From Acidimicrobiia bacterium (GTDB lineage Bacteria; Actinomycetota; Acidimicrobiia; Spongiisociales; UBA5794): a DNA stretch of 64,000 nucleotides. A model generated the notes under the pieces. The model did no database searches. It worked only from the letters and a program-made list of their open reading frames with translations, and was not told the origin of the DNA. Below are positions 17,449 through 64,000 of this stretch, in pieces (positions within the stretch are counted from its first letter, which is position 1; each line of letters begins with the position of its first letter). The stretch covers positions 339 to 64,338 of the forward strand of contig JAWKJB010000002.1 of assembly GCA_041393965.1 (NCBI GenBank). Reading direction: 5' to 3'. Made by a program: the position numbers and the translations under genes.

Positions 17449-17490
17449 TGCGGGAGGGCTCCCTCCTCGCCAGACAGCTTCTATTATTCC

Positions 17491-48794: not shown

Positions 48795-49390
48795 CGTGCG
48801 ACAGCGGCAGGTTCGGGAACCGATGCGCCACGCACCGCGAATCGGGCAAAGTCCTCAGCGATCTCGTGTGCCGTCTTGGCGCCGTCCGGCCGGTACCAGC
48901 GGATCACCGAGTTGCACATCCCGAGGATGGCCTTGACAGCGACACCAAAATCCTGGGCGACGAATTCCCCTGCCTCATAGCCCTCCTCGAGCAGCCGGCG
49001 GAAGACGGCTTCGTAGGCGTCGCGCCGGGCGAGATGTGCTGCCATGTACTCGGTGTCGAGGTAGCGGCCCTCGTCGGTGAAACAGGCAACGGCGTCGCGG
49101 TCCTCGATCGCTCCGACCGTGTGGAGGATGACCGCGAGACGGAGCCGTTCGGCGGCAGGGACATGCATGTCGGCCACATCTTCGACAAGTGGTGTCACCC
49201 GGCGAACCGTGCGTTCGATGATCTCGGACAGCAACGCCTGCTTGGAAGGGAAATGGTGATAGAGGCTGGATTTGGTGATCCCAACCGCCTCGGCGAGTTC
49301 GGACATCGAGGTACCGTTGAAGCCCTTGCGTCGGAATAGTGCGGCGCCTTCGAGGCGAATGCGGTCCCGCGTGTCGGTTCCGTGAATCAC
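48791..49390 (-). CDS. TetR/AcrR-family transcriptional regulator embedded within the catabolic operon (4-nt overlaps on both sides)
   Basis: TetR HTH (GFNGTSMSELAEAVGITKSSLYHHFPSKQAL). Confidence 0.8.
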   Translation of the reverse strand: MIHGTDTRDRIRLEGAALFRRKGFNGTSMSELAEAVGITKSSLYHHFPSKQALLSEIIERTVRRVTPLVEDVADMHVPAAERLRLAVILHTVGAIEDRDAVACFTDEGRYLDTEYMAAHLARRDAYEAVFRRLLEEGYEAGEFVAQDFGVAVKAILGMCNSVIRWYRPDGAKTAHEIAEDFARFAVRGASVPEPAAVAR

Positions 49391-49923
49391 GCCGCGGCGC
49401 CCTGCGCAAGTCGCATGCCTGCAGCGAGCGCCTCGAGGTTCTTCTTTCGGTGCTGGGGCGGAACCCGCGCAGCCACCGCCCGTTCGAGCGCCGCACCGTC
49501 GACAAGGCCGGTATGGGCCTGGAGGACACCGAGCGCAACGACGCCTGTGGCGAGTTCGCCACCGGTGACCGCCCGCGCTGTGTCGACGACGGGGAAGAAC
49601 ACGGCGGTGTCGTCCGGCTCCTCGAGGACGCAGCGGGAGTCGATGATCAGCGTGCTTCCGACCGCCAAATCCGGCTTGTACTTGTCGAGAGCCTTCTGCG
49701 ACAGCGCAACAAGCGTATCGATGCTGTCGGCGAGCGGAAACCCAACCGTGTCGGTCGCGATCACCACATCGGAACGGCTCGAACCGCCCCTTGATTGGGG
49801 TCCGTACAGCTGGCTGTGCGTCGCCCGCTTCCCGGAAAGGATCGCGGCTTCCGCAAGGATCCTGCCTGCGGTCACCACACCTTGCCCGCCCGCGCCAGCG
49901 ATCCTGATCTCATTGCGAGCCAC
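49387..49923 (-). CDS. 2-oxoacid:ferredoxin oxidoreductase gamma subunit
   Basis: GTG start with AGGAGG SD; IRIAGAGGQGVVTAG (POR gamma motif). Confidence 0.75.
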   Translation of the reverse strand: MARNEIRIAGAGGQGVVTAGRILAEAAILSGKRATHSQLYGPQSRGGSSRSDVVIATDTVGFPLADSIDTLVALSQKALDKYKPDLAVGSTLIIDSRCVLEEPDDTAVFFPVVDTARAVTGGELATGVVALGVLQAHTGLVDGAALERAVAARVPPQHRKKNLEALAAGMRLAQGAAA

Positions 49924-50785
49924 GGCCACCTCCTGCGCCTGCCCCCTGGAACACGGGACGGATCTCCTTCTTGAGCACACCGGTCTTGAGGGCGGGTGCA
50001 GGCAGATCGACCGGCACATGCTCGACGAAACGCTTGTCCGACAGCGGTCCGGCAACCCCTTCATCGCGCATGGCGATCCAGTTGAGCATCTCGGGCCCGC
50101 CCCCGATCTTGTTGTAGCGCCCGAAGTACTCGGGGCAGTCGCTCACCAACTCGATGAACGCGAACCCGGGATGGGAGAGGCCTTCCGCCATCACCTTGGT
50201 CATGGCGATCGGGTTGGCTGCGAAGACCCTCGCAACGAAGGACGCCCCTGCACCCTTGAGCAGCTCACAGGCGTCAAATCCCGGCTCGGCGTTGCCTTGG
50301 GGCGTTGTCGAAGCGATCGCCCCTTCGGGTGTGGTTGGGGCTGCCTGGCCCCCGGTCATGCCGTAGATCGAGTTGTTGAGCAGCAGCACGGTCATGTCGA
50401 TGTTGCGCCTGGCGGCATGGATGAGGTGATTGCCGCCAATCGCGAGCCCGTCACCATCGCCGGTGACGACCACCACATTGAGATCGGGACGAGCGAGCTT
50501 CAAGCCGGTCGCAAAGGCCGGGGCGCGTCCGTGTGTGCCGTGGAGCGTGCAGAAATCCACATAGCCGGCAAGCCGTGAACTGCAGCCGATCCCAGCAACC
50601 ATCGCGATCTTGTTCTGGTCGAGTTGGAGTTGGTCGACGGCTTCGAGGAATGATCGAAGCACGATGCCGTGGGCGCACCCGGGACACAGGACATGGGGCA
50701 TCGCCCACTCTCGCAAGTAGGCCTTCACATCGGTCTTCGATGCGGCCGTTGTTTCGGTTTCGGGGTGGATCCTGACATCGGTCAT
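49910..50785 (-). CDS. 2-oxoacid:ferredoxin oxidoreductase beta subunit (TPP-binding)
   Basis: CPGCAHG, GIGCSS, TGDGDGLAIGGNH motifs. Confidence 0.85.
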   Translation of the reverse strand: MTDVRIHPETETTAASKTDVKAYLREWAMPHVLCPGCAHGIVLRSFLEAVDQLQLDQNKIAMVAGIGCSSRLAGYVDFCTLHGTHGRAPAFATGLKLARPDLNVVVVTGDGDGLAIGGNHLIHAARRNIDMTVLLLNNSIYGMTGGQAAPTTPEGAIASTTPQGNAEPGFDACELLKGAGASFVARVFAANPIAMTKVMAEGLSHPGFAFIELVSDCPEYFGRYNKIGGGPEMLNWIAMRDEGVAGPLSDKRFVEHVPVDLPAPALKTGVLKKEIRPVFQGAGAGGGRGSQ

Positions 50786-51927
50786 GCGCGTCCTCCGTGG
50801 ATCTTGGTGAGCACTTCCTCGATCGCGATCGGGGTGACCGGCTCGCCTCCCGAGCGCAGGTGCGGGACGATCTCGGCCTTGCCCATCGCGGAGCGTTCGA
50901 CTTCCCCGACCAGCTGCCCGAGGTTCATCTCGGCAACGACGATCGTGTCGACTCGTTCGGCCACAGCCCTCACCTGTTCGGTTGGGAACGGCCACACGGT
51001 CAGCGGTCTGATCATGCCTGCCTTGATCCCGCGCTCGCGTGCCCGTTCGACCGCGAGCTTGGCGGAGCGTCCAACGATGCCGTAGGCGAACACGGCGATG
51101 TCGGCATCATCGAGGAGGTACTCGTCGACTTCGACGACCTCATCGAGGTGGGCATCGATCTTGTTGTGGAGCCGGCTGATGAGCGCCTCGGCAACGGCGG
51201 TGTCGTTGGTGGGGAACCCCCGGTGGTCGTGGGCGAGGCCGGTCACATGGAACCGATAGCCGTCCCCGAACGGCGACATCGCGGGGACACCATCGGGATC
51301 GGCGTCCTTGGGCCAGAACTCGTCGAGGGCCGTACCTGGTGTCACGCGGTCGACCACGGTCACCGAATCCGGGAGCTCGACGCTTTCACGGGTGTGCCCG
51401 ATGATCTCGTCGTAGAGGAGAATGACCGGTGTGCGGAAGCGCTCCGCGAGGTTGAAGGCCTTGACGGTGAGGTCGAAGACCTCCCCGACCGACGAGGGGG
51501 CAAGCACGATGGCGGGATGGTCGCCGTGGGTCCCCCACCGTGCCTGCATCACATCTCCCTGCGATGGCGAGGTTGGCATGCCCGTGCTGGGACCTCCCCG
51601 CATCACATTGACGATCACACAAGGGACCTCGGCGATCGTCGCAAACCCGACATGCTCTTGCATGAGGGAGAAGCCCGGCCCGCTCGTCGCGGTCATCGCT
51701 TTGGCACCGGCGATCGACGCACCGATGACCGCCGCGAGGGACGAGATCTCGTCCTCCATCTGCACCGAGACTCCACCGACCTCGGGCATGCGCCGCACCA
51801 TGTGCTCGGCGATCTCCGACGATGGGGTGATGGGATACCCCCCGTAGAAGGTGCAACCGGCGGCGAGGGCGCCCTTGACGCAGGCCTCGTTGCCCTGGAT
51901 GAGCTTTGCGGTTGTCGCGGTTGTCAT
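50782..51927 (-). CDS. 2-oxoacid:ferredoxin oxidoreductase alpha subunit
   Basis: LIQGNEACVKGALAAGCTFYGGYPITPSSEI N-terminus; GGGAGGA SD. Confidence 0.85.
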   Translation of the reverse strand: MTTATTAKLIQGNEACVKGALAAGCTFYGGYPITPSSEIAEHMVRRMPEVGGVSVQMEDEISSLAAVIGASIAGAKAMTATSGPGFSLMQEHVGFATIAEVPCVIVNVMRGGPSTGMPTSPSQGDVMQARWGTHGDHPAIVLAPSSVGEVFDLTVKAFNLAERFRTPVILLYDEIIGHTRESVELPDSVTVVDRVTPGTALDEFWPKDADPDGVPAMSPFGDGYRFHVTGLAHDHRGFPTNDTAVAEALISRLHNKIDAHLDEVVEVDEYLLDDADIAVFAYGIVGRSAKLAVERARERGIKAGMIRPLTVWPFPTEQVRAVAERVDTIVVAEMNLGQLVGEVERSAMGKAEIVPHLRSGGEPVTPIAIEEVLTKIHGGRA

Positions 51928-52802
51928 CGGGTGGTCCTCCCTGATGCTGCCGGCACCGGATCGGCTGTCTCCGCCGGTGGGTGGATGGTGATTGCAAAGT
52001 CGGGGCACAACATCTCGCACAGACGACACCCGGTGCAGGCATCGGCATCGACGATCAGCAGCGTGCCGTCGGTATCGAGCTTCAGGCAGTACTCGGGACA
52101 GACCCTCGGGCAGATGTCGCAGCTCTTGCACCAGTCCTGGCGGATCTCGATGAGGTGGGGTCCCGGGGCAACCTCGGGATCCGGCCCCGGGAGCGGGATC
52201 TCCGCCGACGGTGCCTGCCGCCCTGCACGGAACGCCGCAAGGTTGACCTCTTCGGTTCCTTTCGGCACGAGGCTGGTGATTGCCGCTTCCCAGTGTTCGG
52301 TGTCGATGTCGACGAAGGCAGCCACCGATCCGAGGATGACGCTGTTCGCGGCCCGCACATTGCCGAGTGCGGCGGCGTTTGCCGTTGCGTCAACGAAGCG
52401 GGATTCGAGTCTCCGGTTCTTGAACAGGTCGCCGTCGAATCGGGGATAGGCCCTCGACCAGGCCCTTGTATCGTTGCACGCTCCCGGCGGGACGATCGTC
52501 TTGAGGTCGGTGACGACGGCACCGCCGTCGCGGACATACTCGACCCATCGGATGGCTTCCGCCCATTCGAAAGCGGCAAGGACCTCGGCGCTTCCCTTCT
52601 CGACGAGCGGGCTGTCGACCTTGTCGCGTTTCCAACGGATGTGGCTCACGACGGAGCCGCCCCGTTGGGCCATGCCGTGCACCTCGCTCTGTTTGACATC
52701 GAACCCTGCTCGCATAAGCGCATCGGCGACGATCATGCTCGCGAGGATGACGCCCTGGCCCCCGACGCCTGCCAGCAAGAGGCCCTTCGCACCGTCAGCC
52801 AT
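51924..52802 (-). CDS. iorB: Indolepyruvate/2-oxoacid ferredoxin oxidoreductase beta (gamma-type) subunit fused to a C-terminal 2x[4Fe-4S] ferredoxin domain
   Basis: LLAGVGGQGVILAS (POR_C); C-terminal CKSCDICPRVCP...CTGCRLCEMLCP. Confidence 0.6.
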   Translation of the reverse strand: MADGAKGLLLAGVGGQGVILASMIVADALMRAGFDVKQSEVHGMAQRGGSVVSHIRWKRDKVDSPLVEKGSAEVLAAFEWAEAIRWVEYVRDGGAVVTDLKTIVPPGACNDTRAWSRAYPRFDGDLFKNRRLESRFVDATANAAALGNVRAANSVILGSVAAFVDIDTEHWEAAITSLVPKGTEEVNLAAFRAGRQAPSAEIPLPGPDPEVAPGPHLIEIRQDWCKSCDICPRVCPEYCLKLDTDGTLLIVDADACTGCRLCEMLCPDFAITIHPPAETADPVPAASGRTTR

Positions 52803-54606
52803 CGCCGTTCCTCCCGTTCATGTCAACCGGCACGATTGCGAGCGGTGGGCAGAGCTGTGCACACAGGGTGCAGCCCGTGCAGGTCACCGTATCGATGACC
52901 ACCTTGCGCCGTCCTTCGAACATCTCGTCGGACCACACGATCGATGGGCAACCGGCGGTCATGCACGCTTGGCACGCCGTGCAGTCCTCTGCGATCACCC
53001 GGAATGGTGTATCCCTGACTTTGATCGGGGCTTCGACACACGGGCGGTTGGTGATGACCACCGACGGGCCGACATGGGCGATCGCCCCTTCGATGGCGCC
53101 ATAGGTTGCTGCCATGTCGTAGGGGTCGATGACGCGGACATCCCGGACACCGAGGGACTTGCATAGCCCTACCAGATCGACAGGAGTCGCCTCCTGCCCT
53201 TGCAATGTGGTCCCGGTGCCCGGATGCTCCTGCCCGCCGGTCATCGCTGTTGTTCCGTTGTCCAAGATGATGACGGTGATGTTTGCATCGGCGTAGACCG
53301 CGTCGGCGAGACCCGCGATACCGCCGTGGAGGAAGGTCGAGTCACCGATGGTGGCGACGACGGGGCCTGCGGCGCCTCCCGATGCCGCGAGTCCGACCGC
53401 CATGCCGATGCTCGAGCCCATCGCGACACAGGTGTCCATTGACGACAGCGGCTCGAGCGCGGCAAGCGTGTAACACCCGATGTCGCCGGTGACGACGGCG
53501 CCGAGGCGCTTGAGGGCAAGGTACGGAGGGGTGTGCGGACAGCCGGGGCACATGAGCGGTGGCCGCGCAACCGTGCCGGGAGCTGGCTCGATCGCGAGGT
53601 ACTCGGGAAGGACTCCGGCTGCGGCAAATCCTCGCCTGACGGCATCGGGGCTGAGCTCGCCAGCCTGGGGAAAGAACTCCTTGCCTTCGACGGCGAGCCC
53701 AGCGGCGCGCAGATCGTTCTCGACGAGGGGATCGAGCTCCTCGATCACGAAGAGCCGATCGACGGTCTTTGCGAACGCTTTGATCCGTTCCATCGGGAGG
53801 GGATAGCTCATGCCGAGCTTGAGGGCCTTGGCGTCCGGGAGCACCTCACGGAGGTAGTGGTGGGCGATACCGGAGGTGACCACGCCGATCGAGGTATCCG
53901 TCCCGGATTCCTCGATCAGGGGGCTCTGGTCTGCGAATTCTTTCAGGTCCTGCAACCGCCGCAGGAGTGCCGGTCGTCGCCCTCGGGCGTGCCCAGGAAT
54001 CATGACGTACTTCTGGGGGTTACGCTCGAAGCCGGCGACCGGCCTTTCCTGGCGGTCCCTGAGTTCTACGACCCCTCGGTTGTGCGAAACCCGTGTCGTC
54101 GTGCGAACGAGAACCGGGGTGTCGTATTGCTCGGAGATCTCAAATGCGAGCGCCGTGAACCGCTTGGCTTCGGCGCTGTTTGCGGGTTCGAGGAGCGGTA
54201 CGGAGCCCATCCGGGCGTAGGCCCTCGTGTCCTGCTCGTTCTGGGAACTGTGCATGCCGGGATCGTCCGCGACGAGGATGACGAGGCCCGCCCCGACCCC
54301 CGTGTAGGCCATCGTCATGAAGGTGTCTGCGGCAACATTGAGCCCGACATGCTTCATCGTGCACAGGGTGCGGATGCCGCCGAGTGACGCGCCGAGGGCA
54401 ACATCGAGGGCGACCTTCTCGTTGGGGGACCAGCGGACCTGCATGTCGGTGCGGTTCGCGATCGATTCGAGTGTCTCGGTGCTCGGCGTTCCCGGATAGC
54501 CGACGGCCATGAGGGCCCCCGCTTCCACCGCCCCGCGGGCGATGGCCTCGTTGCCGGACAGGAGGACGGTCGTGCCCTCGTCGACACGCGTTTCGAGGGT
54601 CGTCAT
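52795..54606 (-). CDS. iorA: Indolepyruvate:ferredoxin oxidoreductase alpha subunit (fused TPP/pyrimidine-binding domains with a C-terminal 4Fe-4S)
   Basis: 603 aa; LLSGNEAIARGAVEAG N-terminus, GDIGCYT, C-terminal CTACQAC...CTGCTLCAQLCP. Confidence 0.75.
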   Translation of the reverse strand: MTTLETRVDEGTTVLLSGNEAIARGAVEAGALMAVGYPGTPSTETLESIANRTDMQVRWSPNEKVALDVALGASLGGIRTLCTMKHVGLNVAADTFMTMAYTGVGAGLVILVADDPGMHSSQNEQDTRAYARMGSVPLLEPANSAEAKRFTALAFEISEQYDTPVLVRTTTRVSHNRGVVELRDRQERPVAGFERNPQKYVMIPGHARGRRPALLRRLQDLKEFADQSPLIEESGTDTSIGVVTSGIAHHYLREVLPDAKALKLGMSYPLPMERIKAFAKTVDRLFVIEELDPLVENDLRAAGLAVEGKEFFPQAGELSPDAVRRGFAAAGVLPEYLAIEPAPGTVARPPLMCPGCPHTPPYLALKRLGAVVTGDIGCYTLAALEPLSSMDTCVAMGSSIGMAVGLAASGGAAGPVVATIGDSTFLHGGIAGLADAVYADANITVIILDNGTTAMTGGQEHPGTGTTLQGQEATPVDLVGLCKSLGVRDVRVIDPYDMAATYGAIEGAIAHVGPSVVITNRPCVEAPIKVRDTPFRVIAEDCTACQACMTAGCPSIVWSDEMFEGRRKVVIDTVTCTGCTLCAQLCPPLAIVPVDMNGRNGDG

Positions 54607-55862
54607 TGCGTGCTCCCGGCGGCGATCAGGTCAAGGATCTCGTCCTCGGCGAGGACATGGTCCGATGTCTTTGCGGCCGCGAGGATCTTGTCGACCGTCG
54701 CGTCGTCGGTCTCACGGCCCCGTTTCGTGAGCCATGCGACCGCATTGGCCCTTCCGCTCATGGGGCCGACGGTGATCTCTTGTTCCCTCCCGAGGAGGTC
54801 TGCGGGTACGCCGCTGTAGATGCGGTTGGCGAGCCATTCGTCGCCCGTACGAATGGCCTTGAGGACGGCTGCGGCGTGCACACCGGTGCTCGTCTCGAAT
54901 GCGTCACTCCCGATCGCTGGCCAGTTCTTGGGAATCGGTGTGCTGGTCGCCTTGGAGACCGCCTCACAGTAGGCGGGGAGGGTCGTGAGGTCGAGGTCGA
55001 GCCAGCCCATCAGCTTGAGGTTGACGAGCAGCATCTCCATGGGCGTGTTGCCTGCCCGTTCCCCGATGCCGATCCCGCACCCATGCACACGGTGGGCTCC
55101 CGAGGCGAGAGCCTGAATCGAGTTGATGACGGACAGGTTGCGGTCCCGGTGGCCGTGATAGTCGATCTTGATGTCTTCGCCGGTTTCGGCGACGATGTCG
55201 ACGGCGAGTTCGACGAGCGCCCGTACCCCCCATGGGGTTGCGTGGCCGACGGTGTCGGAGAGGCAGATGCGCCGTGCGCCCGCTTCGATCGCCGCGGTGT
55301 ACAGCGTGCGGAGGATCTCTGGCCTTGCCCGGGTCGTGTCCTCGGTCACATACATGACCTCGAGACCTTCCTTGCGGGCGAGATTGATGGCGTCGACGGT
55401 TGTCTTTGCGAGGAAGTCGACATCCCAGCCCTCGACGAATTGGCGGATGGGGCTCGTGCCGAGGAACAGGGAAGCTTCGATCGCGACGCCGGAGCGTTGC
55501 TGGGCCTCGGCGATGGGGAGGATGTCTGCTGGGTGGGTCCGGCCTGCACAGTTGGGCTCGATCGAGAAGCCTTCCTTGTCGATCTCTTCGGCAAGGGCGG
55601 TGACATGGTCAAGTACGGTCGCGTCGGCGCCCGGGTAGCCGAGATCGACGGCCTGGATGCCGAGGCCAGCCATGCGGTGGAGGATCTCGAGTTTCTCATC
55701 GAGGTTCGGTTGACGGACCGACGGGCTCTGGAGGCCGTCACGCAGCGTCTCGTCGTCGAGCTCCACCGTTGCAGGTGCCGGCGTGCCCTCCATGCCGACG
55801 ACATTCCAGTCGTAGAGCAGCTCCTGTTCCCGAGCGCTGGTGTCTTGCCCCATGCCCTCGCC
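54603..55862 (-). CDS. DRE-TIM metallolyase (LeuA/HMGL-like; 2-isopropylmalate/homocitrate/citramalate synthase family)
   Basis: LDDETLRDGLQ motif; HxH metal site (IDYHGHRD). Start chosen at the internal ATG 55862 preceded by a perfect AAGGAGG SD; the longer ORF N-terminus lacks an SD. Confidence 0.75.
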   Translation of the reverse strand, partial: GEGMGQDTSAREQELLYDWNVVGMEGTPAPATVELDDETLRDGLQSPSVRQPNLDEKLEILHRMAGLGIQAVDLGYPGADATVLDHVTALAEEIDKEGFSIEPNCAGRTHPADILPIAEAQQRSGVAIEASLFLGTSPIRQFVEGWDVDFLAKTTVDAINLARKEGLEVMYVTEDTTRARPEILRTLYTAAIEAGARRICLSDTVGHATPWGVRALVELAVDIVAETGEDIKIDYHGHRDRNLSVINSIQALASGAHRVHGCGIGIGERAGNTPMEMLLVNLKLMGWLDLDLTTLPAYCEAVSKATSTPIPKNWPAIGSDAFETSTGVHAAAVLKAIRTGDEWLANRIYSGVPADLLGREQEITVGPMSGRANAVAWLTKRGRETDDATVDKILAAAKTSDHVLAEDEILDLIAAGSTQ

Positions 55863-56207
55863 TCCTTTGCGTTGGATCGATCCCTCGCAGCCGTCCGGCC
55901 GGTCGGTTGACAAGGTAGTCATAGAATCCCAAGGACGGGGGCGACCGGCAATCCGCCTTTTGTATCATTTATCTGATGCATTCGCATCACGACAGTGATC
56001 GTGGTGCACAAATCACGATCCGGCAAGAGGATCCCGACGATTCGTCAGGCGACGGCCCGGACCGCAGGTAGGCTGAATGCATCACAGAAATGGGGTCGGT
56101 GGCTCATTGACGCAGCGAGGTCACGGGGAGACACTCGGGTCTGGACGACCGACCGGCCGGAAGGCAGATGCGGTTCGGCGTGCCCACGGCCACACGAAGG
56201 AGGAGCA

Positions 56208-56627
56208 TTGACGACAGCTGTGATGGGGGCATCATTCCGACCGGGGGAGCTCGAGATCCACGACGACGGCACCGGCAACCTGCTCGGCAGCCGATGCACC
56301 AACTGCGGGGCGTGCTTCTTCCCGATCCGGGAGGCCTGTGCGGGATGCCTGAGCCAGGAACTGGACACGATCCGGTTCTCGACCGAGGGGACGCTGTACA
56401 CCTATTCGATCGTACGCCAGTCGATCCCCGCGTTCGAGGTTCCGTACGCGCTCGGGTATGTGGACTTCCCTGAGGGTGTCCGCATCATGGGCCAGATCTC
56501 AGGGATAGACTTCGATGACATCGAGATCGGCATGCCGATGTCGCTCTCGCTTGAACCGTTCGGTGAGGATGCCGATGGCAACCCACTCACGGGCTACCGA
56601 TTTCGTCCCTCGGAGGTGTCTGAATGA
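56208..56627 (+). CDS. Zn-ribbon OB-fold (DUF35) protein, thiolase partner
   Basis: CTNCGACFFPIREACAGC zinc ribbon; TTG start 5 nt after the AAGGAGG SD; 4-nt overlap with the thiolase gene. Confidence 0.65.
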   Translation: MTTAVMGASFRPGELEIHDDGTGNLLGSRCTNCGACFFPIREACAGCLSQELDTIRFSTEGTLYTYSIVRQSIPAFEVPYALGYVDFPEGVRIMGQISGIDFDDIEIGMPMSLSLEPFGEDADGNPLTGYRFRPSEVSE

Positions 56628-57766
56628 CCGATGTCCACATCGTCGGGGTCGGCATGACCCGCTTCGGCAAGCATCCGGACAGCGATGCCACCGACCTCGG
56701 CTCGGCCGCGCTGCTCGAGGCAGTCGCCGACGCCGGCATCGACGCACGCCTCATCGAGTCGGCCTATGTCGGCCATGTGTTCCAGGGCATGGTGACGGGC
56801 CAGCGGATCCTCGCCCAGGTCGGCCTTGCAGGCCTTCCGCTCGTCAATGTCGAGAACGCCTGCAGCTCCGGTGCCACCGCGATCCGCGAGGCATCCCTTG
56901 CGATCCGTGCCGGTGAGAACGATGTTGTGGTGGCGGTCGGCACCGAGCACCTCACCTCGAAGTTCGGGGGAGCCCTCACCCCGGATCCAAGCGATCCGGA
57001 AGCGGCCATCGGGGCGACGATGCCGGGGATCTACGCCATGCGCGCCACCCGGTACATGGCCGATCATGGCATGACCCGCGAACAGCTCGCCCTGATCCCT
57101 GTCAAGAACAAGGCGAACGCGGCGCAGAATCCGCTCGCCCATTTCCGTACGCCGATCACGGTGGAAGATGTGCTCGAGTCGCGTCCCGTCGCCGATCCGC
57201 TCCACCTCCACGACTGCTCGCCGGTGACCGACGGCGCTGCTGCGGTGATCATGATGAGTGATGCCGCAGCAGCGAGGTACGCCAATGGGCGAGGTGTCAG
57301 GCTCGCCGCCTCGGCGCTTCGTTCCGGCTCGGTCGAGACTGAGCCAACGACGATGACCTTCGAACCGCTCACCTGGGCGACGGCGCAAGATGCCTACGAG
57401 AAGGCAGGTGTTGGCCCAGACGAGGTCGACTTCGCCGAGGTCCATGACTGCTTCTCGATCGCTGAGGTGCTGCGCGTTGAAGGCCTCGGCCTCTTCGAGC
57501 AGGGCAGCTATCCCCGAGCGGTCGAGCGTGGCGAAGCCAACATCAACGGCCGTCTGCCGGTGAACCCGAGTGGCGGCCTCATCGGCAAAGGGCACCCGCT
57601 CGGCGGCACGGGAGTGGCCCAGGTCGTCGAGCTGGTGCGTCAGCTCCGCGGGGAGGCGGGAGATCGCCAGATCGAGGGAGCCAAGGTGGGCCTCGCCCAC
57701 TGTCGGGGCGGAAAGGCAGTCGGGATCGAGGGAGCTGCGTGCACCGTTCAGATCTTGACTCGCTGA
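56624..57766 (+). CDS. SCP-x-type thiolase (thiolase-domain protein that pairs with DUF35)
   Basis: HIVGVGMTRFGKH, NVENACSSGATAI (active Cys), GGLIGKGHPLGGTG. Confidence 0.8.
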   Translation: MTDVHIVGVGMTRFGKHPDSDATDLGSAALLEAVADAGIDARLIESAYVGHVFQGMVTGQRILAQVGLAGLPLVNVENACSSGATAIREASLAIRAGENDVVVAVGTEHLTSKFGGALTPDPSDPEAAIGATMPGIYAMRATRYMADHGMTREQLALIPVKNKANAAQNPLAHFRTPITVEDVLESRPVADPLHLHDCSPVTDGAAAVIMMSDAAAARYANGRGVRLAASALRSGSVETEPTTMTFEPLTWATAQDAYEKAGVGPDEVDFAEVHDCFSIAEVLRVEGLGLFEQGSYPRAVERGEANINGRLPVNPSGGLIGKGHPLGGTGVAQVVELVRQLRGEAGDRQIEGAKVGLAHCRGGKAVGIEGAACTVQILTR

Positions 57767-58914
57767 AAGCGTCTGGCACCGAGCAACGGTCGGTGCCGTT
57801 CGTGCTGATGCGCGGCGGCACCAGCAAAGCCGTCTTCCTCAGATCCGAGCATGTCCCCGAAGGTGCCGCCGCAGCCGACGCCATGATCTTGGCGCTGTTC
57901 GGCAGTCCGGACCCGCGTCAGATCGACGGACTCGGAGGCGCCGACCTCCTCACCTCCAAGCTTGCCATCATCGGGCCAACGACCCGACCCGACGCCGACA
58001 TCGACTACACCTTTGCGCAGGTGAGCATCACCGAGGCGGTCGTCGACTACGACATCAACTGCGGGAACATCTCTGCGGCGGTGGGGGCTTACGCCGTCGA
58101 CGAGGGCCTCGTGCCGGTGGTTGTGCCGGTGACGACGGTCGCGATCCACAATACGAACACCGGACGGGTGCTGCGCGCAGGTGTTCCGATCGTCGACGGA
58201 AGGGCCGCCGTCGAGGGCTCGTACCGTGTCCACGGGGTGCCGGGCACCGGAGCCCCCATCTCCCTCGACTTTGCGCAGACCGCGGGGGGAATCACCGGGT
58301 CGCTGCTGCCCACCGGCAATGTGTCGGATGTCCTCGACACCGAGATCGGCCCCGTTGAGGTCACGATCGTTGACCTTGCCAACCTGACGGTCTTCATGCG
58401 GGCCGAAGCGGTTGGCATGCGCGGGAACGAGACGCCGGGGGAGTTCACCGAGGGGAACCTCGAAGCGATTTCGGCCGTGAAAGCGAGCGCCGCTACCCTC
58501 CTTGGCATGCCAACCGACGGCCTCACCCCCGTGCCAGCGATCGTGTCGGAACCCGCGGCGTATGTGGCCTATGGCTCCGAGGACAAGGTCGAGGCCTCCG
58601 AGATCGACCTCGTCGCGCGGGTGGTCGGCGGCCGCCCGCCGGTCGTGCACAAGGCGTATCCGGGAACGGTCGCCGCCTGCACCGGTGTTGCCGCTTCCAT
58701 TGAAGGGACCACCGTGCATGCCGTCACGAGCCCCGATCGTGTGGATGCGACCAGGTTCGCGATCGGGCACCCTGCGGGCGTCATGCCGGTGACTGCGCGG
58801 GTGGCACGCAGCGCCGGGAATTGGGAAGCCGAGGAAGCCACCTATCTGCGGACCGCGCGCCGGATCGCGCAGGGTGAGGCCTTCATCCGCAACGATGGGG
58901 TGCTGCCGGGATGA
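57739..58914 (+). CDS. PrpF/AcnD-accessory-family isomerase (methylaconitate/methylitaconate isomerase-like)
   Basis: VPFVLMRGGTSKAVF signature; start uncertain (the ORF overlaps the thiolase stop by 28 nt; a later GTG is possible). Confidence 0.7.
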   Translation: MHRSDLDSLKASGTEQRSVPFVLMRGGTSKAVFLRSEHVPEGAAAADAMILALFGSPDPRQIDGLGGADLLTSKLAIIGPTTRPDADIDYTFAQVSITEAVVDYDINCGNISAAVGAYAVDEGLVPVVVPVTTVAIHNTNTGRVLRAGVPIVDGRAAVEGSYRVHGVPGTGAPISLDFAQTAGGITGSLLPTGNVSDVLDTEIGPVEVTIVDLANLTVFMRAEAVGMRGNETPGEFTEGNLEAISAVKASAATLLGMPTDGLTPVPAIVSEPAAYVAYGSEDKVEASEIDLVARVVGGRPPVVHKAYPGTVAACTGVAASIEGTTVHAVTSPDRVDATRFAIGHPAGVMPVTARVARSAGNWEAEEATYLRTARRIAQGEAFIRNDGVLPG

Positions 58915-59393
58915 CCGACGGGGTGCTCACGCTCGAGATCAACGGGGAGCAGCGCTCCGCGATCATCGACACCAACCGGACCCTGCTGGAGTTCCTCCGT
59001 GAGGATCTGTCCATGACCGGCACCAAGCACGGCTGCGACCTCGGAGAGTGCGGGACCTGCACCGTTCTCGTCGACGGCAAGCCGGTGCTGTCGTGCATCA
59101 CCCTTGCGTGGCAGGTTGCCGGAAGCACGATCACCACGATCGAGGGCCTCTCCGACGGGCGGTTCCCTGATGAGCTCCAGACCGCATTCGCAGAGCTGAA
59201 CGCCGCGCAATGCGGATACTGCACACCGGGCATGATCCTGTCGGCGCGCTCGCTCCTCGATCGGAACCCTGACCCTTCGACCGACGAGATCAACGAAGCC
59301 CTCGCGGGCAACCTGTGCCGGTGCACCGGCTATGTGAAGATCATCAGCGCCGTCCACCTTGCGGCGACCCGTAGCGCACCGGAGTCCGGCTGA
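58911..59393 (+). CDS. (2Fe-2S)-binding small subunit of a xanthine-dehydrogenase-family molybdoenzyme
   Basis: CDLGECGTCTV and CGYCTPG...CRCTGY motifs. Confidence 0.85.
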   Translation: MTDGVLTLEINGEQRSAIIDTNRTLLEFLREDLSMTGTKHGCDLGECGTCTVLVDGKPVLSCITLAWQVAGSTITTIEGLSDGRFPDELQTAFAELNAAQCGYCTPGMILSARSLLDRNPDPSTDEINEALAGNLCRCTGYVKIISAVHLAATRSAPESG

Positions 59394-61777
59394 TGGGAGC
59401 CGTCGGGATACCGGCAGCCCGTGTCGACGGGATGGAACAGACGACCGGGCGGACCGCCTATGTCGATGACATGAAGCTCCCCGGCATGCTGATCGGTCGC
59501 CAGCTCAGAAGCACCGCCGTGCACGCGAGGATCGTCAGCATCGACACCTCGAAGGCCGAAGCGCTCGAGGGTGTGAAGGCAGTCATCACGGGCGCCGACC
59601 TCCCGATCACCTACGGCATTCTTCCGGTGAGCCAGGATGAACCGGCCCTCGCCATCGACCGTGTGCGTCACGCAGGGGAAGCAGTCGCCGCGGTTGCCGC
59701 GGTCGATGCCAAGACCGCTGAACGGGCACTGGACCTCATCGAAGTCGTGTATGAGCCGCTCGACACGATCGCAACCTATGAGGACGCCTTCGACGACAAC
59801 CTCGACCTGCTCCACGGTGACGGGAAGGGCAGGAACACCCACCGAGCGGCGGCCCTCGAGTTCGGCGATGTCGATGAGGGTTTCGCCGCAGCGGACCACA
59901 TCAGGGAGGATGTGTTCTACTTCGAGGGCAACACCCACGCTGCCCTCGAGATGCACGCCGCCCTCGCGTCGTGGGAGCCGTCGGGGAAGGTAACGCTGTG
60001 GTCCTCGACCCAGGTTCCCCACTATGTCCACCGGACCCTCGCCAAGGTGCTCGAGATGCCCGCGGGGCAGATCAGGGTGATTGCTGCACCGGTCGGCGGC
60101 GGTTTCGGGGGCAAGACCGACCCGTTCTCACATGAGATCGTTGCGGCGAAGCTGTCGATGATGACCGGGCGCCCTGTCAAGATCACCTTGACCCGTGAGG
60201 AGGTGTTCTACTGTCACCGCGGTCGCCACCCAGTGCTCATGTGGGTGAGGACCGGCTTCGATTCCGAGGGCCGCATCACGGCGAGCCACTTCAAGACCTA
60301 CCTCGACGGTGGCGCCTACGGCAGCTACGGCATCGCCACCCTGTACTACACCGGCGCACTCCAGACCACCACCTATTCGATCCCCAACTATCGGTTCGAG
60401 GGTGTGAGGGTCTATACGAACAAGCCGGTGTGTGGCCCGAAGCGGGGCCACGGAACGCCGCAGCCCCGGTTCGCACTCGAGTGTCAGCTCGACAAGGCCG
60501 CGGAGGATCTCGGCATCGATCCCGTGTCGATCCGGCTCGTGAATGCCGTGCCGGAGCATTCGATGACGGTCAACCATCTTCGGATCACGAGCTGTGGGCT
60601 CACCGAATGCATCGAACGCGTCGCTGAGGCTTCCGGCTTTGCCGAAAAACACGGCAAGCTCCCGGAGGGACGCGGTATCGGGCTCGCGGTTGGGGCCTAC
60701 ATGTCGGGGGCAGGGCTCCCCATCTACTTCAACGACATGCCCCAATCAGAGGTCCAGATCAAGGTCGATCGTGGCGGGGGAGTCACCGTGTATTCGATGG
60801 CGACCGACATCGGCCAGGGTTCCACCTCGATGCTTGCGACGATCGTCGCAGAGACGCTCGGGCTCGATCCGACCGACATTGCGATGGTGACCGCCGACAC
60901 GGACCTCACCCCCGTCGATCTGGGGAGCTACTCGTCGAGGGTCACCTTCATGGGCGGCAACGCGGCCCTCGCAGCGGGGGTCAACCTCCGTGATCGAATC
61001 GTCACCGCGGTCGCAGACAAACTCGGGGTGGCCCCCGGGGATCTTGTCGCCCGCAACGGACGCATCGAGGTGGACGGGGATCCTGACACCGGCGTTCCGT
61101 GGCTGGAGGCGGTCACGATCACGATCGCCGCCACGGGATCCCTCGTCGTGTCCGGCAGCTACAAGGCGCCGGAACTCGCCGGATCCCACAAAGGTGCCGG
61201 TGTGGGCATCTCGCCCGCCTACAGCTATTCGGCCGCCGTCGTGGAGCTCGACTGTGACTCGACGACCGGGTTGGTGAAAGTTCACAAGGTCTGGCTCGCC
61301 CACGATATCGGGACCTCGATCAATCCGCTCCTCGTCGAGGGCCAGATCGAAGGTGGGGTTTATATGGGTCTCGGTGAGGCGTTGTATGAGGAACAGAGCT
61401 TCCGTGGAGCGCTGCTCCGGGGGCCGTCGCTGTTGGATTACAAGATGCCGACGAGCCTCGACATGCCGCCGGTCGAGTCGATCATCGTCGATACGGATGA
61501 CCCGGAGGGCCCGTTCGGTGCCAAGGAGGTGGGCCAGGGGCCGCTTCTTCCGGTGATCCCGGCCGTGGCGAACGCCATCTACGATGCGATCGGTATCCGC
61601 ATGGATGCCACCCCGTTCACCCCTGACCGGATCGTTTCCGCGCTCCGCGATCGGGCACGGGGGCGGGAGGGCAGGTACGGCCCTGACTCGGTTCCCGACT
61701 TCGAGTTCCCGCCGCTCGTCAAGGTGGAGCCACCCGAGGCGTTCGCACCGATGGCGACGAAGGTCGGTGCACCATGA
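59393..61777 (+). CDS. Molybdopterin-binding large subunit of a xanthine-dehydrogenase-family enzyme
   Basis: 794 aa with the Ald_Xan_dh_C/C2 domain layout; 1-nt overlap with the small-subunit gene. Confidence 0.85.
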   Translation: MGAVGIPAARVDGMEQTTGRTAYVDDMKLPGMLIGRQLRSTAVHARIVSIDTSKAEALEGVKAVITGADLPITYGILPVSQDEPALAIDRVRHAGEAVAAVAAVDAKTAERALDLIEVVYEPLDTIATYEDAFDDNLDLLHGDGKGRNTHRAAALEFGDVDEGFAAADHIREDVFYFEGNTHAALEMHAALASWEPSGKVTLWSSTQVPHYVHRTLAKVLEMPAGQIRVIAAPVGGGFGGKTDPFSHEIVAAKLSMMTGRPVKITLTREEVFYCHRGRHPVLMWVRTGFDSEGRITASHFKTYLDGGAYGSYGIATLYYTGALQTTTYSIPNYRFEGVRVYTNKPVCGPKRGHGTPQPRFALECQLDKAAEDLGIDPVSIRLVNAVPEHSMTVNHLRITSCGLTECIERVAEASGFAEKHGKLPEGRGIGLAVGAYMSGAGLPIYFNDMPQSEVQIKVDRGGGVTVYSMATDIGQGSTSMLATIVAETLGLDPTDIAMVTADTDLTPVDLGSYSSRVTFMGGNAALAAGVNLRDRIVTAVADKLGVAPGDLVARNGRIEVDGDPDTGVPWLEAVTITIAATGSLVVSGSYKAPELAGSHKGAGVGISPAYSYSAAVVELDCDSTTGLVKVHKVWLAHDIGTSINPLLVEGQIEGGVYMGLGEALYEEQSFRGALLRGPSLLDYKMPTSLDMPPVESIIVDTDDPEGPFGAKEVGQGPLLPVIPAVANAIYDAIGIRMDATPFTPDRIVSALRDRARGREGRYGPDSVPDFEFPPLVKVEPPEAFAPMATKVGAP

Positions 61778-62769
61778 CGATCCAGGTCCCGCCGGTCGGA
61801 TATGTCACACCCGCAACGCTCGACGAGGCGGTCGAGCTGCTCGCCGATCCGACCGTTTCCGTGATCGGTGGTGGGACCGATCTCGTCCCGAAGATGAAGC
61901 GGCGACAGGCCACACCGGTCACGCTCGTGTCGCTTGCCCACATCGACGACATGGCAGGGATCAGGGTCGACGACACCGGCAACTGCATCATCGGGGCATC
62001 GACGACCCTCGTTGAGATCGTCACCTCCCCAACGGTCCCCAGGGTCGTTGCCGTGGCCGCCGAATCGGTTGCTTCACCGCAGATCCGGAACACGGGCACG
62101 ATCGGCGGGAACCTGTGCATCGATACACGCTGCAACTACATCGACATGCCGCTCGACTGGCGGCGGACCCGCGGGCACTGCCTCAAGGACGGCGGTGACA
62201 CCTGTTGGGTTGCGCCGAAGAGCAACAAGTGCTGGGCGATCAGCTCGACGGATCTCGCCCCGGTGATGATCGCCCTCGACGCGACGGTGCGGCTCGTCAG
62301 CGGAAGGGGAGAACGCTCGATCCCCGTGGAGGCGCTCTACCACAACGACGGCATGGACTACCTCACGAAGGCGCCAGACGAGATCCTCATCGATGTGACC
62401 ATCCCACCGTTCGACGGACGCGCGAGCTACCAGAAGCTGCGCAGGCGGGGCTCGATCGATTTCGGTCTGCTCGGGGTGGCTGCTGCCGTGAGTTTTGATG
62501 CGGGAGGCGTCTGTACGACCGCACGGATCGCCGTCGGCGGTATCGCATCGGCGCCGTTGCGAGCGACCGACGCTGAGGAATACCTCGTGGGCAAGGTGCT
62601 GACCGACGAAACGATCGACGAAGCTTCGGAGCTCGTCTCGAAGGCATTCCGGAGCCAGGACAACACCGACACGGGGTCTCGCTACCGCAAGTGGATGATC
62701 CCGGTCCATGCAGCCAAGGCGCTCCACGAGGTCGCGGGCGGCGACGGTGAGGCGGAAGGGAACCGATGA
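61774..62769 (+). CDS. FAD-binding medium subunit carrying a cysteine-rich insertion (C-x4-C-x15-C-x7-C-x8-C), HcrB-like
   Basis: FAD_binding_5/CO_deh_flav_C; insertion GNLCIDTRCNYIDMPLDWRRTRGHCLKDGGDTCWVAPKSNKCW. Confidence 0.8.
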   Translation: MTIQVPPVGYVTPATLDEAVELLADPTVSVIGGGTDLVPKMKRRQATPVTLVSLAHIDDMAGIRVDDTGNCIIGASTTLVEIVTSPTVPRVVAVAAESVASPQIRNTGTIGGNLCIDTRCNYIDMPLDWRRTRGHCLKDGGDTCWVAPKSNKCWAISSTDLAPVMIALDATVRLVSGRGERSIPVEALYHNDGMDYLTKAPDEILIDVTIPPFDGRASYQKLRRRGSIDFGLLGVAAAVSFDAGGVCTTARIAVGGIASAPLRATDAEEYLVGKVLTDETIDEASELVSKAFRSQDNTDTGSRYRKWMIPVHAAKALHEVAGGDGEAEGNR

Positions 62770-63824
62770 CGGAGAGCAGATACGCCTGGCGGTTCGTTGC
62801 CGTCGGTGAACCCCTCGAGAAGGTCGAAGCTGCCGGTCGCGAGCCACAAGACCACGAAGTCGTGGTGCAGGTGGCGGGCTGCGGCATCTGTCACACCGAC
62901 CTCGGATTCCTCGACGGGAGCGTCTCGACGAAGGCAGGGCTGCCACTCGTCCTCGGACACGAGATCGCGGGTACCGTCGTCGAGGCCGGCGCCGGCGCTG
63001 AGGAGTGGCCTGGTCGTGATGTGCTCGTACCCGCAGTGATCCCGTGTGGGGACTGTGATCTGTGCAACAAGGGCAAGGGCAATGCCTGCACACGCCAGCT
63101 GATGCCTGGAAACGATCTTGATGGAGGCTGGGCAACCCATGTGACGATTCCCACGCGGGGGCTCTCGGTGATCGAAGACCTGCCCGAACGGTACGAACTC
63201 GCCGACTTGTCGGTGATCGCTGACGCGGTCACAACACCGCTCCAGGCTGTGCGTCGCGCCGGCGTCACCGACGGTGACCTCGCCGTGGTGATCGGCGTCG
63301 GCGGTGTCGGTTCGTACGCGGTGCAGATCGCTGCTGCGAGCGGGGCCAAGGTGGTCGCGATCGACATCGACGACGACCGGCTCGCCGTCCTTGAGGATCA
63401 TGGGGCGGCAGCGACCGTGAACTCGAGGGGGATGGATCCGAGGGAGGTGCGCGACGCCGTGCGGTTCCACGCCAAGCAGCTCGGCGCGCCGTCGATTGGC
63501 TGGAAGATCTTCGAATGCTCCGGCACCGCTCCGGGTCAGGAAACCGCGTACGGTCTCCTCGGTCCGCAGGCCACCCTCGCGGTGGTGGGGTTCACGATGG
63601 ACAAGATCTCGGTACGGCTCTCGAACCTGATGGCGTTCGATGCGACCGCATTCGGGACCTGGGGATGTCCGCCAGAGCGGTATCCCGAGGCGGTCGAACT
63701 CGTGATCTCCGGGAAGGTCGATCTCGCCCCGTTCATCCGCAAAGTCCCGATGGCCGAGATCGCTCGGGCCATCGACGATGCCCACAACCATGTCGATCCA
63801 CGACGAACCATTCTCATCCCATAG
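62766..63824 (+). CDS. Zinc-binding MDR alcohol dehydrogenase family protein
   Basis: GCGICHTD, GHEIAG, catalytic/structural Zn Cys cluster CGDCDLCNKGKGNAC, GVGGVGS Rossmann. Confidence 0.8.
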   Translation: MTESRYAWRFVAVGEPLEKVEAAGREPQDHEVVVQVAGCGICHTDLGFLDGSVSTKAGLPLVLGHEIAGTVVEAGAGAEEWPGRDVLVPAVIPCGDCDLCNKGKGNACTRQLMPGNDLDGGWATHVTIPTRGLSVIEDLPERYELADLSVIADAVTTPLQAVRRAGVTDGDLAVVIGVGGVGSYAVQIAAASGAKVVAIDIDDDRLAVLEDHGAAATVNSRGMDPREVRDAVRFHAKQLGAPSIGWKIFECSGTAPGQETAYGLLGPQATLAVVGFTMDKISVRLSNLMAFDATAFGTWGCPPERYPEAVELVISGKVDLAPFIRKVPMAEIARAIDDAHNHVDPRRTILIP

Positions 63825-63839
63825 GAAAGGTGGCACCAG

Positions 63840-64000
63840 GTGACACTCATCAACCATGAATTGGCTCCCGACCATGTGTACTCCGAGATCCTCTACGAGG
63901 AGCGTCCGATCCACGACCAGGACGGGAACGAGGTCGACGGCTTGCACGCTGTGTGGATCACGCTGAACAACCCGAAGCAACTGAACTCATATACGACCGC
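63840..64000 (+). CDS. Enoyl-CoA hydratase/isomerase family protein (5' part; continues past the window end)
   Basis: GTG start; ITLNNPKQLNS crotonase-fold N-terminus. Confidence 0.6.
   Translation, partial: MTLINHELAPDHVYSEILYEERPIHDQDGNEVDGLHAVWITLNNPKQLNSYTT

Follow-up and report, generated by a model that had tools for sequence, protein, structure and literature searches.

The 64,000-nucleotide stretch of contig JAWKJB010000002.1 analyzed here (hereafter the window), from an uncultured member of the Acidimicrobiia, ends within a large divergent gene cluster that begins at position 43218 and continues past position 64000. We judge the chances to be about even that these approximately 25-30 kb form one supercluster for the oxygen-free catabolism of aromatic compounds via benzoyl-CoA, together with a set of feeder enzymes. 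At its core the cluster has a known pathway, here in a host not expected to contain it, with a feeder module that is plausibly a new variant. On the basis of gene content, the closest relatives of the encoded proteins, and conserved linkage, we infer that the cluster may encode an anaerobic route, not described before, by which aromatic 2-oxoacids are converted to benzoyl-CoA, a proposal to which we assign a probability of approximately 0.4. Phenylalanine or tyrosine would be the source of the 2-oxoacids; alternatively, IorAB operating in reverse would form them from phenylacetyl-CoA or 4-hydroxyphenylacetyl-CoA. Anaerobic degradation via benzoyl-CoA has been described mainly in Proteobacteria, along with a few Firmicutes and a single archaeon. 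The Acidimicrobiia that carry the complete-looking, Thauera-type gene set described here form an abundant lineage of sediments, as yet uncultured, that is not normally counted among the anaerobic degraders of aromatic compounds.

Open reading frames (ORFs) were combined with Pfam and NCBIfam matches to define eight genes on the plus strand between positions 56208 and 64000. Their order is that given in the initial annotation of this DNA, which had listed a DUF35 protein, a thiolase, a PrpF-like protein, a molybdenum (Mo) enzyme, a zinc-dependent alcohol dehydrogenase, and a crotonase:

56208..56627, plus strand: DUF35 protein with zinc ribbon and OB fold, BbsA-like thiolase partner (Pfam zf-ChsH2 and OB_ChsH2_C)
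56624..57766, plus strand: SCP-x-type thiolase, BbsB-like (NCBIfam, PDB)
57739..58914, plus strand: PrpF-family isomerase, nearest to 3-methylitaconate delta-isomerase (Mii) (PF04303, PDB)
58911..59393, plus strand: HcrC-like subunit, two [2Fe-2S] clusters (TIGR03193, Cys motifs)
59393..61777, plus strand: HcrA-like molybdopterin subunit (TIGR03194, PDB 1RM6_A)
61774..62769, plus strand: HcrB-like FAD subunit with an extra Cys-rich loop (TIGR03195, alignment with 1RM6_B)
62766..63824, plus strand: Had, zinc-dependent alcohol dehydrogenase (TIGR03201)
63840..64000, plus strand: Oah/BamA-type hydrolase, N-terminal 53 codons, cut by the window end (TIGR03200)

The E-values of the Pfam and NCBIfam matches for the eight genes range from 1e-18 to 1e-265, which excludes chance ORFs. 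Because the junctions consist of ATGA or TGATG overlaps, or of a 16-nt gap with a ribosome-binding site, the genes were assigned to one translationally coupled operon. The DUF35 and thiolase genes overlap as ATGA, and 28 nt are shared by the thiolase and isomerase genes. The operon had been taken to begin at position 55995, but this is only the earliest start codon in the longest ORF; it was ruled out as the start of the DUF35 gene by the conserved GGAGGA-N5-TTG at 56208, and positions 55995-56207 are leader or intergenic sequence. The TTG start at 56208 is preceded by GGAGGAG (ribosome-binding site at ∼56199-56206) and is conserved in L056 and L057, two of the related loci used for comparison (designated by L numbers). 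The gene content beyond the window end was taken from syntenic loci of relatives; these continue with Oah and Dch, in agreement with the initial view that the operon runs on past position 64000.

The zinc-dependent alcohol dehydrogenase, for which comparison with 6-hydroxycyclohex-1-ene-1-carbonyl-CoA dehydrogenase (Had) had been recommended, scored 458 bits with the corresponding model TIGR03201 (curated cut-off, 338.65 bits; next family, 147 bits). It contains the Pfam domains ADH_N and ADH_zinc_N and the full zinc ligand set that had been reported for it, with the catalytic C42/H65 and the structural C94, C97, C100, and C108 all present. The 53-residue crotonase fragment, located 16 nt after Had, has TIGR03200, the model for 6-oxocyclohex-1-ene-1-carbonyl-CoA hydrolase (Oah), as its sole family match (51 bits). 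It is 61-74% identical to the N-termini of the orthologues in L001-L004 and L006, and the full-length orthologue in L005 scores 546.6 bits with the same model (cut-off, 464.45 bits). The gene initially described as a crotonase is thus predicted to belong to aromatic-CoA metabolism, as a ring-opening hydrolase and not a simple hydratase. From these comparisons, Had and Oah are predicted to be the final pair of enzymes in benzoyl-CoA ring opening of the Thauera type.

The Mo enzyme was compared with 4-hydroxybenzoyl-CoA reductase (HCR; HcrCAB or HbaBCD). Its three subunits carry the Pfam domains Fer2/Fer2_2, Ald_Xan_dh_C/MoCoBD_1/MoCoBD_2, and FAD_binding_5/CO_deh_flav_C, and their top NCBIfam matches are the HcrC model TIGR03193 (193.5 bits; cut-off, 257.8), the HcrA model TIGR03194 (881.6 bits; cut-off, 994.55; next family, 537 bits), and the HcrB model TIGR03195 (252.2 bits; cut-off, 404.55). 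In the PDB, the large subunit matches Thauera HcrA (1RM6_A) with 645 bits, and the next match has 300 bits. Structure 1RM6 contains an insert of approximately 40 residues that binds an additional [4Fe-4S] cluster and is not known from other enzymes of the xanthine oxidase family. The HcrB-like protein aligns without a break through this insert of 1RM6_B and retains all five of its Cys residues (GNLC..TRC..C..C..C); its Pfam match extends over 204 residues for 166 profile positions. The Mo enzyme, which had been called HcrCAB-like, is therefore placed nearest to HCR with its special iron-sulfur loop intact, and the comparisons identify it as a predicted dehydroxylase of the HCR type. The three ring steps (4-hydroxybenzoyl-CoA dehydroxylation, alcohol oxidation, and ring hydrolysis) are well supported, and the earlier description of the operon as containing pieces of an anaerobic aromatic-CoA pathway stands.

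The remainder of the central pathway was observed in relatives. Oah and Dch follow Had in L002-L006, L056, L057, and L067. In L005, the full-length Oah gene is succeeded by a Dch-like hydratase gene (200 bits, top match, below the cut-off), a TetR gene, and then four convergent genes similar to those for the class I benzoyl-CoA reductase (BCR) subunits BcrD, BcrA, BcrB, and BcrC, all below the cut-off; L056 and L057-L059 have the same continuation. The class I BCR-like genes (for two BcrAD/BadFG-type ATPases and two HgdB-type subunits) lie 1-7 kb past Dch in L005, L056, and L057, and a BcrC-like gene is found approximately 1 kb after HcrB on the same strand in L062. In these relatives, then, the operon continues with Dch and has a class I ATP-dependent BCR-like enzyme nearby. 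Homologues of caprolactamase/acetophenone-carboxylase-type (hydantoinase A/B) subunits are encoded directly past the Bcr-like genes of L005 (18615-21010, minus strand); they could catalyze a further ATP-dependent reaction in the aromatic or ketone metabolism of this lineage.

The second arm of the cluster is a string of minus-strand genes running from position 55922 down to 43218, divergent from the plus-strand operon:

55923..56207, no strand: predicted divergent promoter/operator region (alignment of seven syntenic intergenic regions)
54603..55922, minus strand: isopropylmalate/homocitrate/citramalate-synthase-family enzyme, first gene of the divergent operon (NCBIfam, PDB)
52795..54606, minus strand: IorA, indolepyruvate (arylpyruvate):ferredoxin oxidoreductase alpha subunit (TIGR03336 IOR_alpha, 663 bits; cut-off, 651)
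51924..52802, minus strand: IorB, beta subunit of the same enzyme, with a C-terminal ferredoxin domain (IorB models at most 193 bits, below cut-off)
50782..51927, minus strand: KorA-like 2-oxoacid:ferredoxin oxidoreductase alpha subunit (PRK08659, 564 bits; cut-off, 411)
49910..50785, minus strand: KorB-like beta subunit, thiamine pyrophosphate (TPP)-binding (87% identity to the L002 orthologue; TPP_enzyme_C in the L056 orthologue)
49387..49929, minus strand: KorC-like gamma subunit (PRK08537)
48791..49390, minus strand: TetR-family regulator (NCBIfam TetR-type matches; Pfam TetR_N in the L056 orthologue)
47562..48794, minus strand: family III (CaiB/BaiF) CoA-transferase, dicarboxylate type (PDB, NCBIfam)
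46745..47572, minus strand: crotonase-type enoyl-CoA hydratase (NCBIfam and PDB, generic)
45830..46576, minus strand: BbsD-like short-chain dehydrogenase (PDB 7PCS_B)
44435..45751, minus strand: HacA/LeuC-like large subunit of an aconitase-family dehydratase (PRK00402, 540 bits; cut-off, 385; hacA_fam, 522 bits)
43924..44442, minus strand: LeuD/HacB-like small subunit of the dehydratase (Pfam Aconitase_C)
43218..43886, minus strand: LuxR-family regulator with a PAS domain, left end of the proposed aromatic supercluster (Pfam GerE and PAS)

The plus-strand operon had been described as divergent from a 2-oxoacid:ferredoxin oxidoreductase operon. This is correct in that IorAB and KorABC come next in the minus-strand string, but the nearest divergent gene is the synthase gene (54603-55922). 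The synthase has an HMGL-like TIM barrel followed by a synthase-type subdomain, lacks a regulatory domain, and scores 140-178 bits with the NCBIfam models for isopropylmalate and homocitrate synthases, all below the cut-offs. Fer4-type matches are located at residues 217-276 of IorB. A LeuD-like gene also follows HacA in L004, L060, and L063, and a 49% identical homologue of the LuxR/PAS regulator adjoins the synthase gene in L066. Pfam and NCBIfam searches of both arms (43218-64000) revealed no homologue of an acyl-CoA dehydrogenase, a glycyl-radical enzyme, or an isopropylmalate dehydrogenase. Nothing related to aromatic metabolism was found in positions 1-43000 of the window, which consist of unrelated housekeeping DNA of the same composition (62-66% G+C throughout the window), and searches of the rest of the window for BCR and CoA ligases were negative.

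Several of the proposed feeder enzymes have their nearest relatives in the side-chain β-oxidation pathway of toluene degradation. The top PDB match of the thiolase is the benzoylsuccinyl-CoA thiolase BbsB (7PXP_C, 289 bits; next match, 231 bits), and its ACSSG nucleophile, GHPLG, and HDCF loop motifs are present. The DUF35 protein has BbsA as its sole NCBIfam match, scores 66 bits with an archaeal DUF35 protein and 62 bits with BbsA in the PDB, and retains the four zinc-ribbon Cys residues. Pfam domains and motifs thus bear out the DUF35/SCP-x thiolase pair of the initial annotation as a two-gene unit. The best match of the dehydrogenase in the whole PDB is BbsD (7PCS_B, 265 bits), aligned over its full length (248/248), compared with 215 bits for the nearest FabG. 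The PrpF-family protein (329 bits with PF04303, E 4e-98) is identical to NCBI entry MEZ5175563.1 from an Acidimicrobiia metagenome-assembled genome (MAG). Its PDB matches are Mii of Eubacterium barkeri (3G7K; 350 bits, 50.6% identity), PrpF (199 bits), and oxalomesaconate isomerase (177 bits), and the equivalog cut-offs for PrpF and oxalomesaconate isomerase were not reached. The Lys of TSK and the Cys of NCGN are kept, aligned to Mii residues 60-62 and 95-98; the catalytic residues of PrpF are K73 and C107 (PMC5690661). For the CoA-transferase, the top PDB match is succinate-hydroxymethylglutarate CoA-transferase (SUGCT; 267 bits), and the NCBIfam matches are succinate-glutarate and succinyl-CoA:mesaconate transferases, all below the cut-offs.

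These genes can be arranged in a continuous reaction sequence. The synthase would form 2-benzylmalate by condensing acetyl-CoA with an arylpyruvate, either phenylpyruvate or 4-hydroxyphenylpyruvate, and the LeuCD-like dehydratase would convert the product to 2-benzylmaleate. The Mii-like isomerase would then form benzylidenesuccinate (phenylitaconate) in a maleate-to-alkylidenesuccinate version of the Mii reaction with a benzyl group in place of methyl. After conversion to the CoA thioester by the family III CoA-transferase at the expense of succinyl-CoA, the product would be hydrated by the crotonase, oxidized by the BbsD-like dehydrogenase, and cleaved by the BbsAB-like thiolase to (4-hydroxy)benzoyl-CoA and succinyl-CoA. 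HcrCAB would remove a 4-hydroxyl group, and BCR, Dch, Had, and Oah would open the ring. IorAB would either supply arylpyruvate from arylacetyl-CoA by reductive carboxylation or oxidize part of the arylpyruvate, and KorABC, by analogy with Thauera, probably reduces ferredoxin for the reductases. In sum, arylpyruvate + acetyl-CoA + NAD+ would give aroyl-CoA + succinate + NADH, with no loss of CO2 and no need for a glycyl-radical enzyme, an acyl-CoA dehydrogenase, or a phenylacetyl-CoA-oxidizing Mo enzyme. The route would join two initial steps of leucine-type chain elongation to the four that complete the toluene (Bbs) pathway, with a Mii homologue as the bridge. That the seven feeder activities form a complete reaction chain supports this interpretation. 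The proposed route would also explain why the elongation-cycle dehydrogenase is absent, why an acyl-CoA dehydrogenase is not needed, why the isomerase and thiolase genes are joined, why HcrCAB immediately follows that pair as an optional insert, and why an arylpyruvate oxidoreductase is encoded in the synthase operon.

Conservation of gene order was examined in relatives. The nearest relatives of Had all come from Acidimicrobiia MAGs (65-75% identity), in loci syntenic with the window. The complete two-arm arrangement recurs in L056, L057-L059, L060, L062, L063, and L067, with identities down to 41-70% in L063, and partial sets in the same order are found in L002, L005, L006, L061, and L066. 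Overall, the set is complete in the six longest of the related loci, and at least six others, shorter or cut, have portions of it in unchanged order. The isomerase and thiolase genes are kept together in all loci examined. L004 is rearranged: the IorAB-KorABC block is missing; the synthase, TetR, transferase, hydratase, dehydrogenase, and dehydratase genes, a divergent hemerythrin-like ORF, and Had, Oah, and Dch are contiguous; and the PrpF, thiolase, and DUF35 genes are divergent from this row. L002 lacks HcrCAB and keeps everything else, which fits HCR as an add-on for 4-hydroxylated substrates. At L003 (2090-5792), HcrCAB-Had-Oah-Dch is preceded by genes for a 739-residue crotonase-domain protein and a 606-residue ORF product with no Pfam match instead of the thiolase-isomerase pair; the gene context of HcrCAB thus varies.

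When metagenome contigs were scanned with an alignment of the synthase, at least 591 relatives were recovered, from which 80 loci were kept. Among these 80, only the loci with at least 62% identity carry the module. In approximately 70 loci with 51-58% identity (within L069-L139), mostly from soil by name, the synthase gene stands mostly alone among housekeeping neighbors, and a few in this range (L109 and L122) have an ordinary synthase-dehydratase-isopropylmalate-dehydrogenase-type operon. IorAB adjoins and precedes the synthase gene in other lineages (L122 and L134), which points to a shared 2-oxoacid. The order (IorAB)-synthase-HacA-LeuD was observed in L122 (7633-18262), L134 (304-5821), and L109 (1736-5954), with synthases of 51-57% identity, and L109 and L122 also contain an isocitrate/isopropylmalate-dehydrogenase homologue. 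These rows look like reductive carboxylation coupled to ordinary 2-oxoacid elongation.

The cluster was compared with four sets of known systems. It shares with Thauera aromatica (bcrCBAD, dch, had, oah, korAB, fdx; hcrCAB) a Had that passes its model, genes for Oah and a Dch-like enzyme, an enzyme resembling the four-subunit class I reductase (in relatives of the window), a 2-oxoacid:ferredoxin oxidoreductase alongside, and an HCR with gamma-alpha-beta order and a [4Fe-4S] loop in beta. It differs in that the host belongs to the Actinobacteriota and is not a proteobacterium, the Hcr proteins of the window and the Dch and Bcr homologues of relatives score below the NCBI equivalog cut-offs, the Kor enzyme has three subunits, and hcrCAB is located between the thiolase-isomerase pair and had. 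With the toluene bbs operon (BbsEF, G, H, CD, AB) it has in common a DUF35 protein and SCP-x thiolase nearest to BbsAB, a dehydrogenase nearest to BbsD, a crotonase with a family III CoA-transferase, and the same logic leading to benzoyl-CoA and succinyl-CoA. Unlike that operon, the cluster contains no benzylsuccinate synthase and no BbsG acyl-CoA dehydrogenase, has a single dehydrogenase gene in place of BbsC and BbsD, and has one CoA-transferase gene nearer to SUGCT than to BbsE or BbsF; its enoyl-level intermediate would instead come from the synthase-dehydratase-isomerase trio.

Precedent for a dehydratase-isomerase pair is found in Mii with dimethylmaleate hydratase of Eubacterium barkeri. 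As in that pair and in AcnD-PrpF of the 2-methylcitrate cycle (PMC5690661), a PrpF-family isomerase is combined with an aconitase-family (de)hydratase, and the isomerase would act between an alkylidene-succinate and an alkyl-maleate. Here the reaction is proposed to run the other way, from maleate to alkylidenesuccinate, the substituent would be benzyl and not methyl, and a Claisen synthase and Bbs-like enzymes take the place of a B12 mutase and a lyase as partners. Finally, an enzyme of the isopropylmalate/homocitrate synthase family accompanied by a two-subunit aconitase-family dehydratase is also found in LeuA/LeuCD and in HphA/HphCD of homophenylalanine synthesis, where a synthase of this kind is known to form benzylmalate. 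In contrast to those systems, there is no LeuB/HphB-type dehydrogenase in the cluster, the synthase lacks a regulatory domain and is distant from characterized members, and the proposed route would depart from the elongation cycle once dehydration has taken place. The combination of genes had been called novel. The HcrCAB-Had-Oah part is familiar, and it is the BbsAB-like thiolase, the Mii homologue, and the genes of the other arm that are unusual.

A number of observations weigh against the proposed function of the cluster. The thiolase scores 317 bits with the NCBIfam BbsB model against a cut-off of 750, and the DUF35 protein scores 81 bits with the BbsA model against a cut-off of 250 (NF053627 and NF053628 for the BbsAB pair). 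The CoA-transferase is not specifically Bbs-like (143 bits with BbsF, 125 bits with BbsE), the minus-arm crotonase (46745..47572) has only generic short-chain enoyl-CoA hydratase matches in NCBIfam and the PDB, and the PDB gave no informative relative as to whether it is related to BbsH. The nearest solved relative of the synthase, homocitrate synthase, matches with only 117 bits. The scores with all three Hcr models, by a wide margin the best-scoring families, lie below the curated cut-offs, and neither BCR nor Dch was seen in the window itself. In L008 (7343-13702), from a Planctomycetota MAG, a 50% identical synthase is encoded in the row synthase-acyl-CoA dehydrogenase-Had-Oah-Dch-short-chain dehydrogenase/reductase (SDR), and no dehydratase, isomerase, or Bbs-like thiolase was found within 10 kb. 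The proposed route does not explain this locus, and the synthase could have another link to the benzoyl-CoA pathway. In addition, the dehydrogenase, hydratase, thiolase, and CoA-transferase could act on 3-hydroxypimelyl-CoA in the lower pathway or serve benzoate activation.

This last point is central to the most serious alternative, which we consider possible though somewhat unlikely: that the cluster encodes the known 4-hydroxybenzoate/benzoate pathway and nothing else. Benzoate or 4-hydroxybenzoate would be activated by the transferase, with KorABC as the source of the succinyl-CoA, HcrCAB would dehydroxylate, and BCR-Dch-Had-Oah would open the ring; the SDR, DUF35/thiolase, and crotonase would take 3-hydroxypimelyl-CoA via 3-oxopimelyl-CoA to glutaryl-CoA and acetyl-CoA and hydrate crotonyl-CoA, and the synthase, LeuCD-like dehydratase, and PrpF-like isomerase would be an unrelated or anaplerotic side activity. 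A family III succinyl-CoA:benzoate CoA-transferase is known in Geobacter. The firm identification of the central pathway genes is consistent with this explanation, as are the generic type of the crotonase and CoA-transferase and the scores of the thiolase and DUF35 protein under the Bbs cut-offs. KorAB genes, moreover, adjoin Had in several other phyla (L007, L009-L012, and L016), as in Thauera. However, the explanation leaves no role for a conserved and interleaved synthase, two-subunit dehydratase, and isomerase. It does not account for the overlap and constant pairing of the isomerase and thiolase genes, or for the arrangement in L004, where the synthase and dehydratase genes bracket those of the transferase, hydratase, and dehydrogenase on one strand. 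The dehydrogenase and thiolase are nearest to BbsD and BbsB of the toluene pathway and not to fatty-acid-type enzymes, and no glutaryl-CoA dehydrogenase is encoded in the cluster.

An improbable alternative is that the same scheme operates on a non-aromatic 2-oxoacid (2-oxobutyrate to acetyl-CoA and succinyl-CoA, or a dicarboxylic acid), the proximity of the benzoyl-CoA genes reflecting co-regulation and not shared flux. The sequences do not fix the side chain R, no characterized enzyme is close to the synthase, the CoA-transferase resembles transferases for aliphatic dicarboxylates, and the crotonase resembles short-chain hydratases. The presence in the synthase operon of an IorA of the arylpyruvate type that passes its cut-off argues for an aromatic substrate instead, as do the location of HcrCAB directly behind the isomerase gene (followed in L062 by the BcrC-like gene) and the fact that the best structural relatives of two of the enzymes are the aromatic-specific BbsB and BbsD. 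A nicotinate or N-heterocycle pathway, with a nicotinate or xanthine dehydrogenase-like hydroxylase as the Mo enzyme and the Mii-like isomerase and hydratase acting as in E. barkeri, whose nicotinate fermentation cluster joins a xanthine dehydrogenase-family Mo enzyme, Mii, and a two-subunit aconitase-family hydratase, would fit Mii as the best solved relative of the isomerase but is largely refuted and highly improbable: the Mo subunit scores 645 bits with HcrA and 258 bits with nicotinate dehydrogenase, the FAD subunit bears the HCR-specific Cys loop, no B12 mutase, enamidase, or dimethylmalate lyase was detected in the cluster by Pfam or NCBIfam, and the Mo enzyme genes are joined to those for Had and Oah, with Dch and BCR-like genes added in relatives. 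Placement of the cluster in a known aerobic pathway such as nicotinate or purine catabolism, raised initially, is likewise at odds with the class I BCR-like genes just downstream in relatives.

Two further schemes were rejected. In the biosynthetic direction, from benzoyl-CoA and succinyl-CoA to phenylpyruvate, the synthase step is effectively irreversible, and a Re-citrate synthase/aconitase branch feeding KorABC leaves the Bbs-like genes and the isomerase unexplained.

Full-text literature searches returned no paper linking benzylmalate, phenylitaconate, or methylitaconate isomerase to benzoyl-CoA metabolism. In one study of MAGs from related Acidimicrobiia (UBA5794), bbsA and bcrBC are simply entered as genes for the degradation of toluene and aromatic compounds (PMC12008989). 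If the proposed route from aromatic 2-oxoacids is correct, it would be a new oxygen-free means of shortening the side chain of compounds derived from phenylalanine, tyrosine, and phenylacetate, and the "toluene" β-oxidation enzymes would have a second, hydrocarbon-independent entry point. Metagenomic bbsA- and bbsB-like genes could then no longer serve as markers of toluene degradation, contrary to their use in that study. Every proposed step is assigned to a soluble, expressible enzyme, so the route is directly testable.

The region between the two arms was aligned for seven syntenic loci. Besides the ribosome-binding site GGAGGAG, three conserved elements emerged: a palindrome, TGATGC-ATTC-GCATCA, at 55974-55989; TTGACG at 56107-56112; and ACGACCGACCGGCCGGAAGG at 56145-56164. 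Across loci the last of these reads ACGACCGA(A/C)CGG(C/T)CGG, and its core is invariant even in the rearranged L004. Repeat and promoter scans of the intergenic region of the window alone gave nothing convincing; the motifs appeared only in the cross-locus alignment. The palindrome and the 56145-56164 element are candidate binding sites for the TetR or LuxR regulators of the cluster.

Just outside the left end of the cluster, genes were found for a hemerythrin-domain protein (42169-42720, plus strand) and an F420H2-dependent quinone-reductase-like protein (42740-43150, minus strand). The 182-residue ORF between the dehydratase and Had genes of L004 (9351-9899, minus strand) is hemerythrin-like by eye only. 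These genes may be linked to oxygen or redox sensing.

Elsewhere in the window, two ORFs of coding-like composition, 28569-31472 (minus strand, 967 residues) and 36843-38732 (plus strand, 629 residues), have no Pfam match at E<=1e-5. A TPP riboswitch at 9286-9399 (plus strand) scores 54.8 bits against an Rfam gathering threshold of 54.3 and lies upstream of a 250-residue ORF without a Pfam match (9461-10213). A fluoride riboswitch at 17487-17547 (plus strand; 48 bits, cut-off 34) is followed by small ORFs at 17566-17991, 17988-18338, and 18351-18695.

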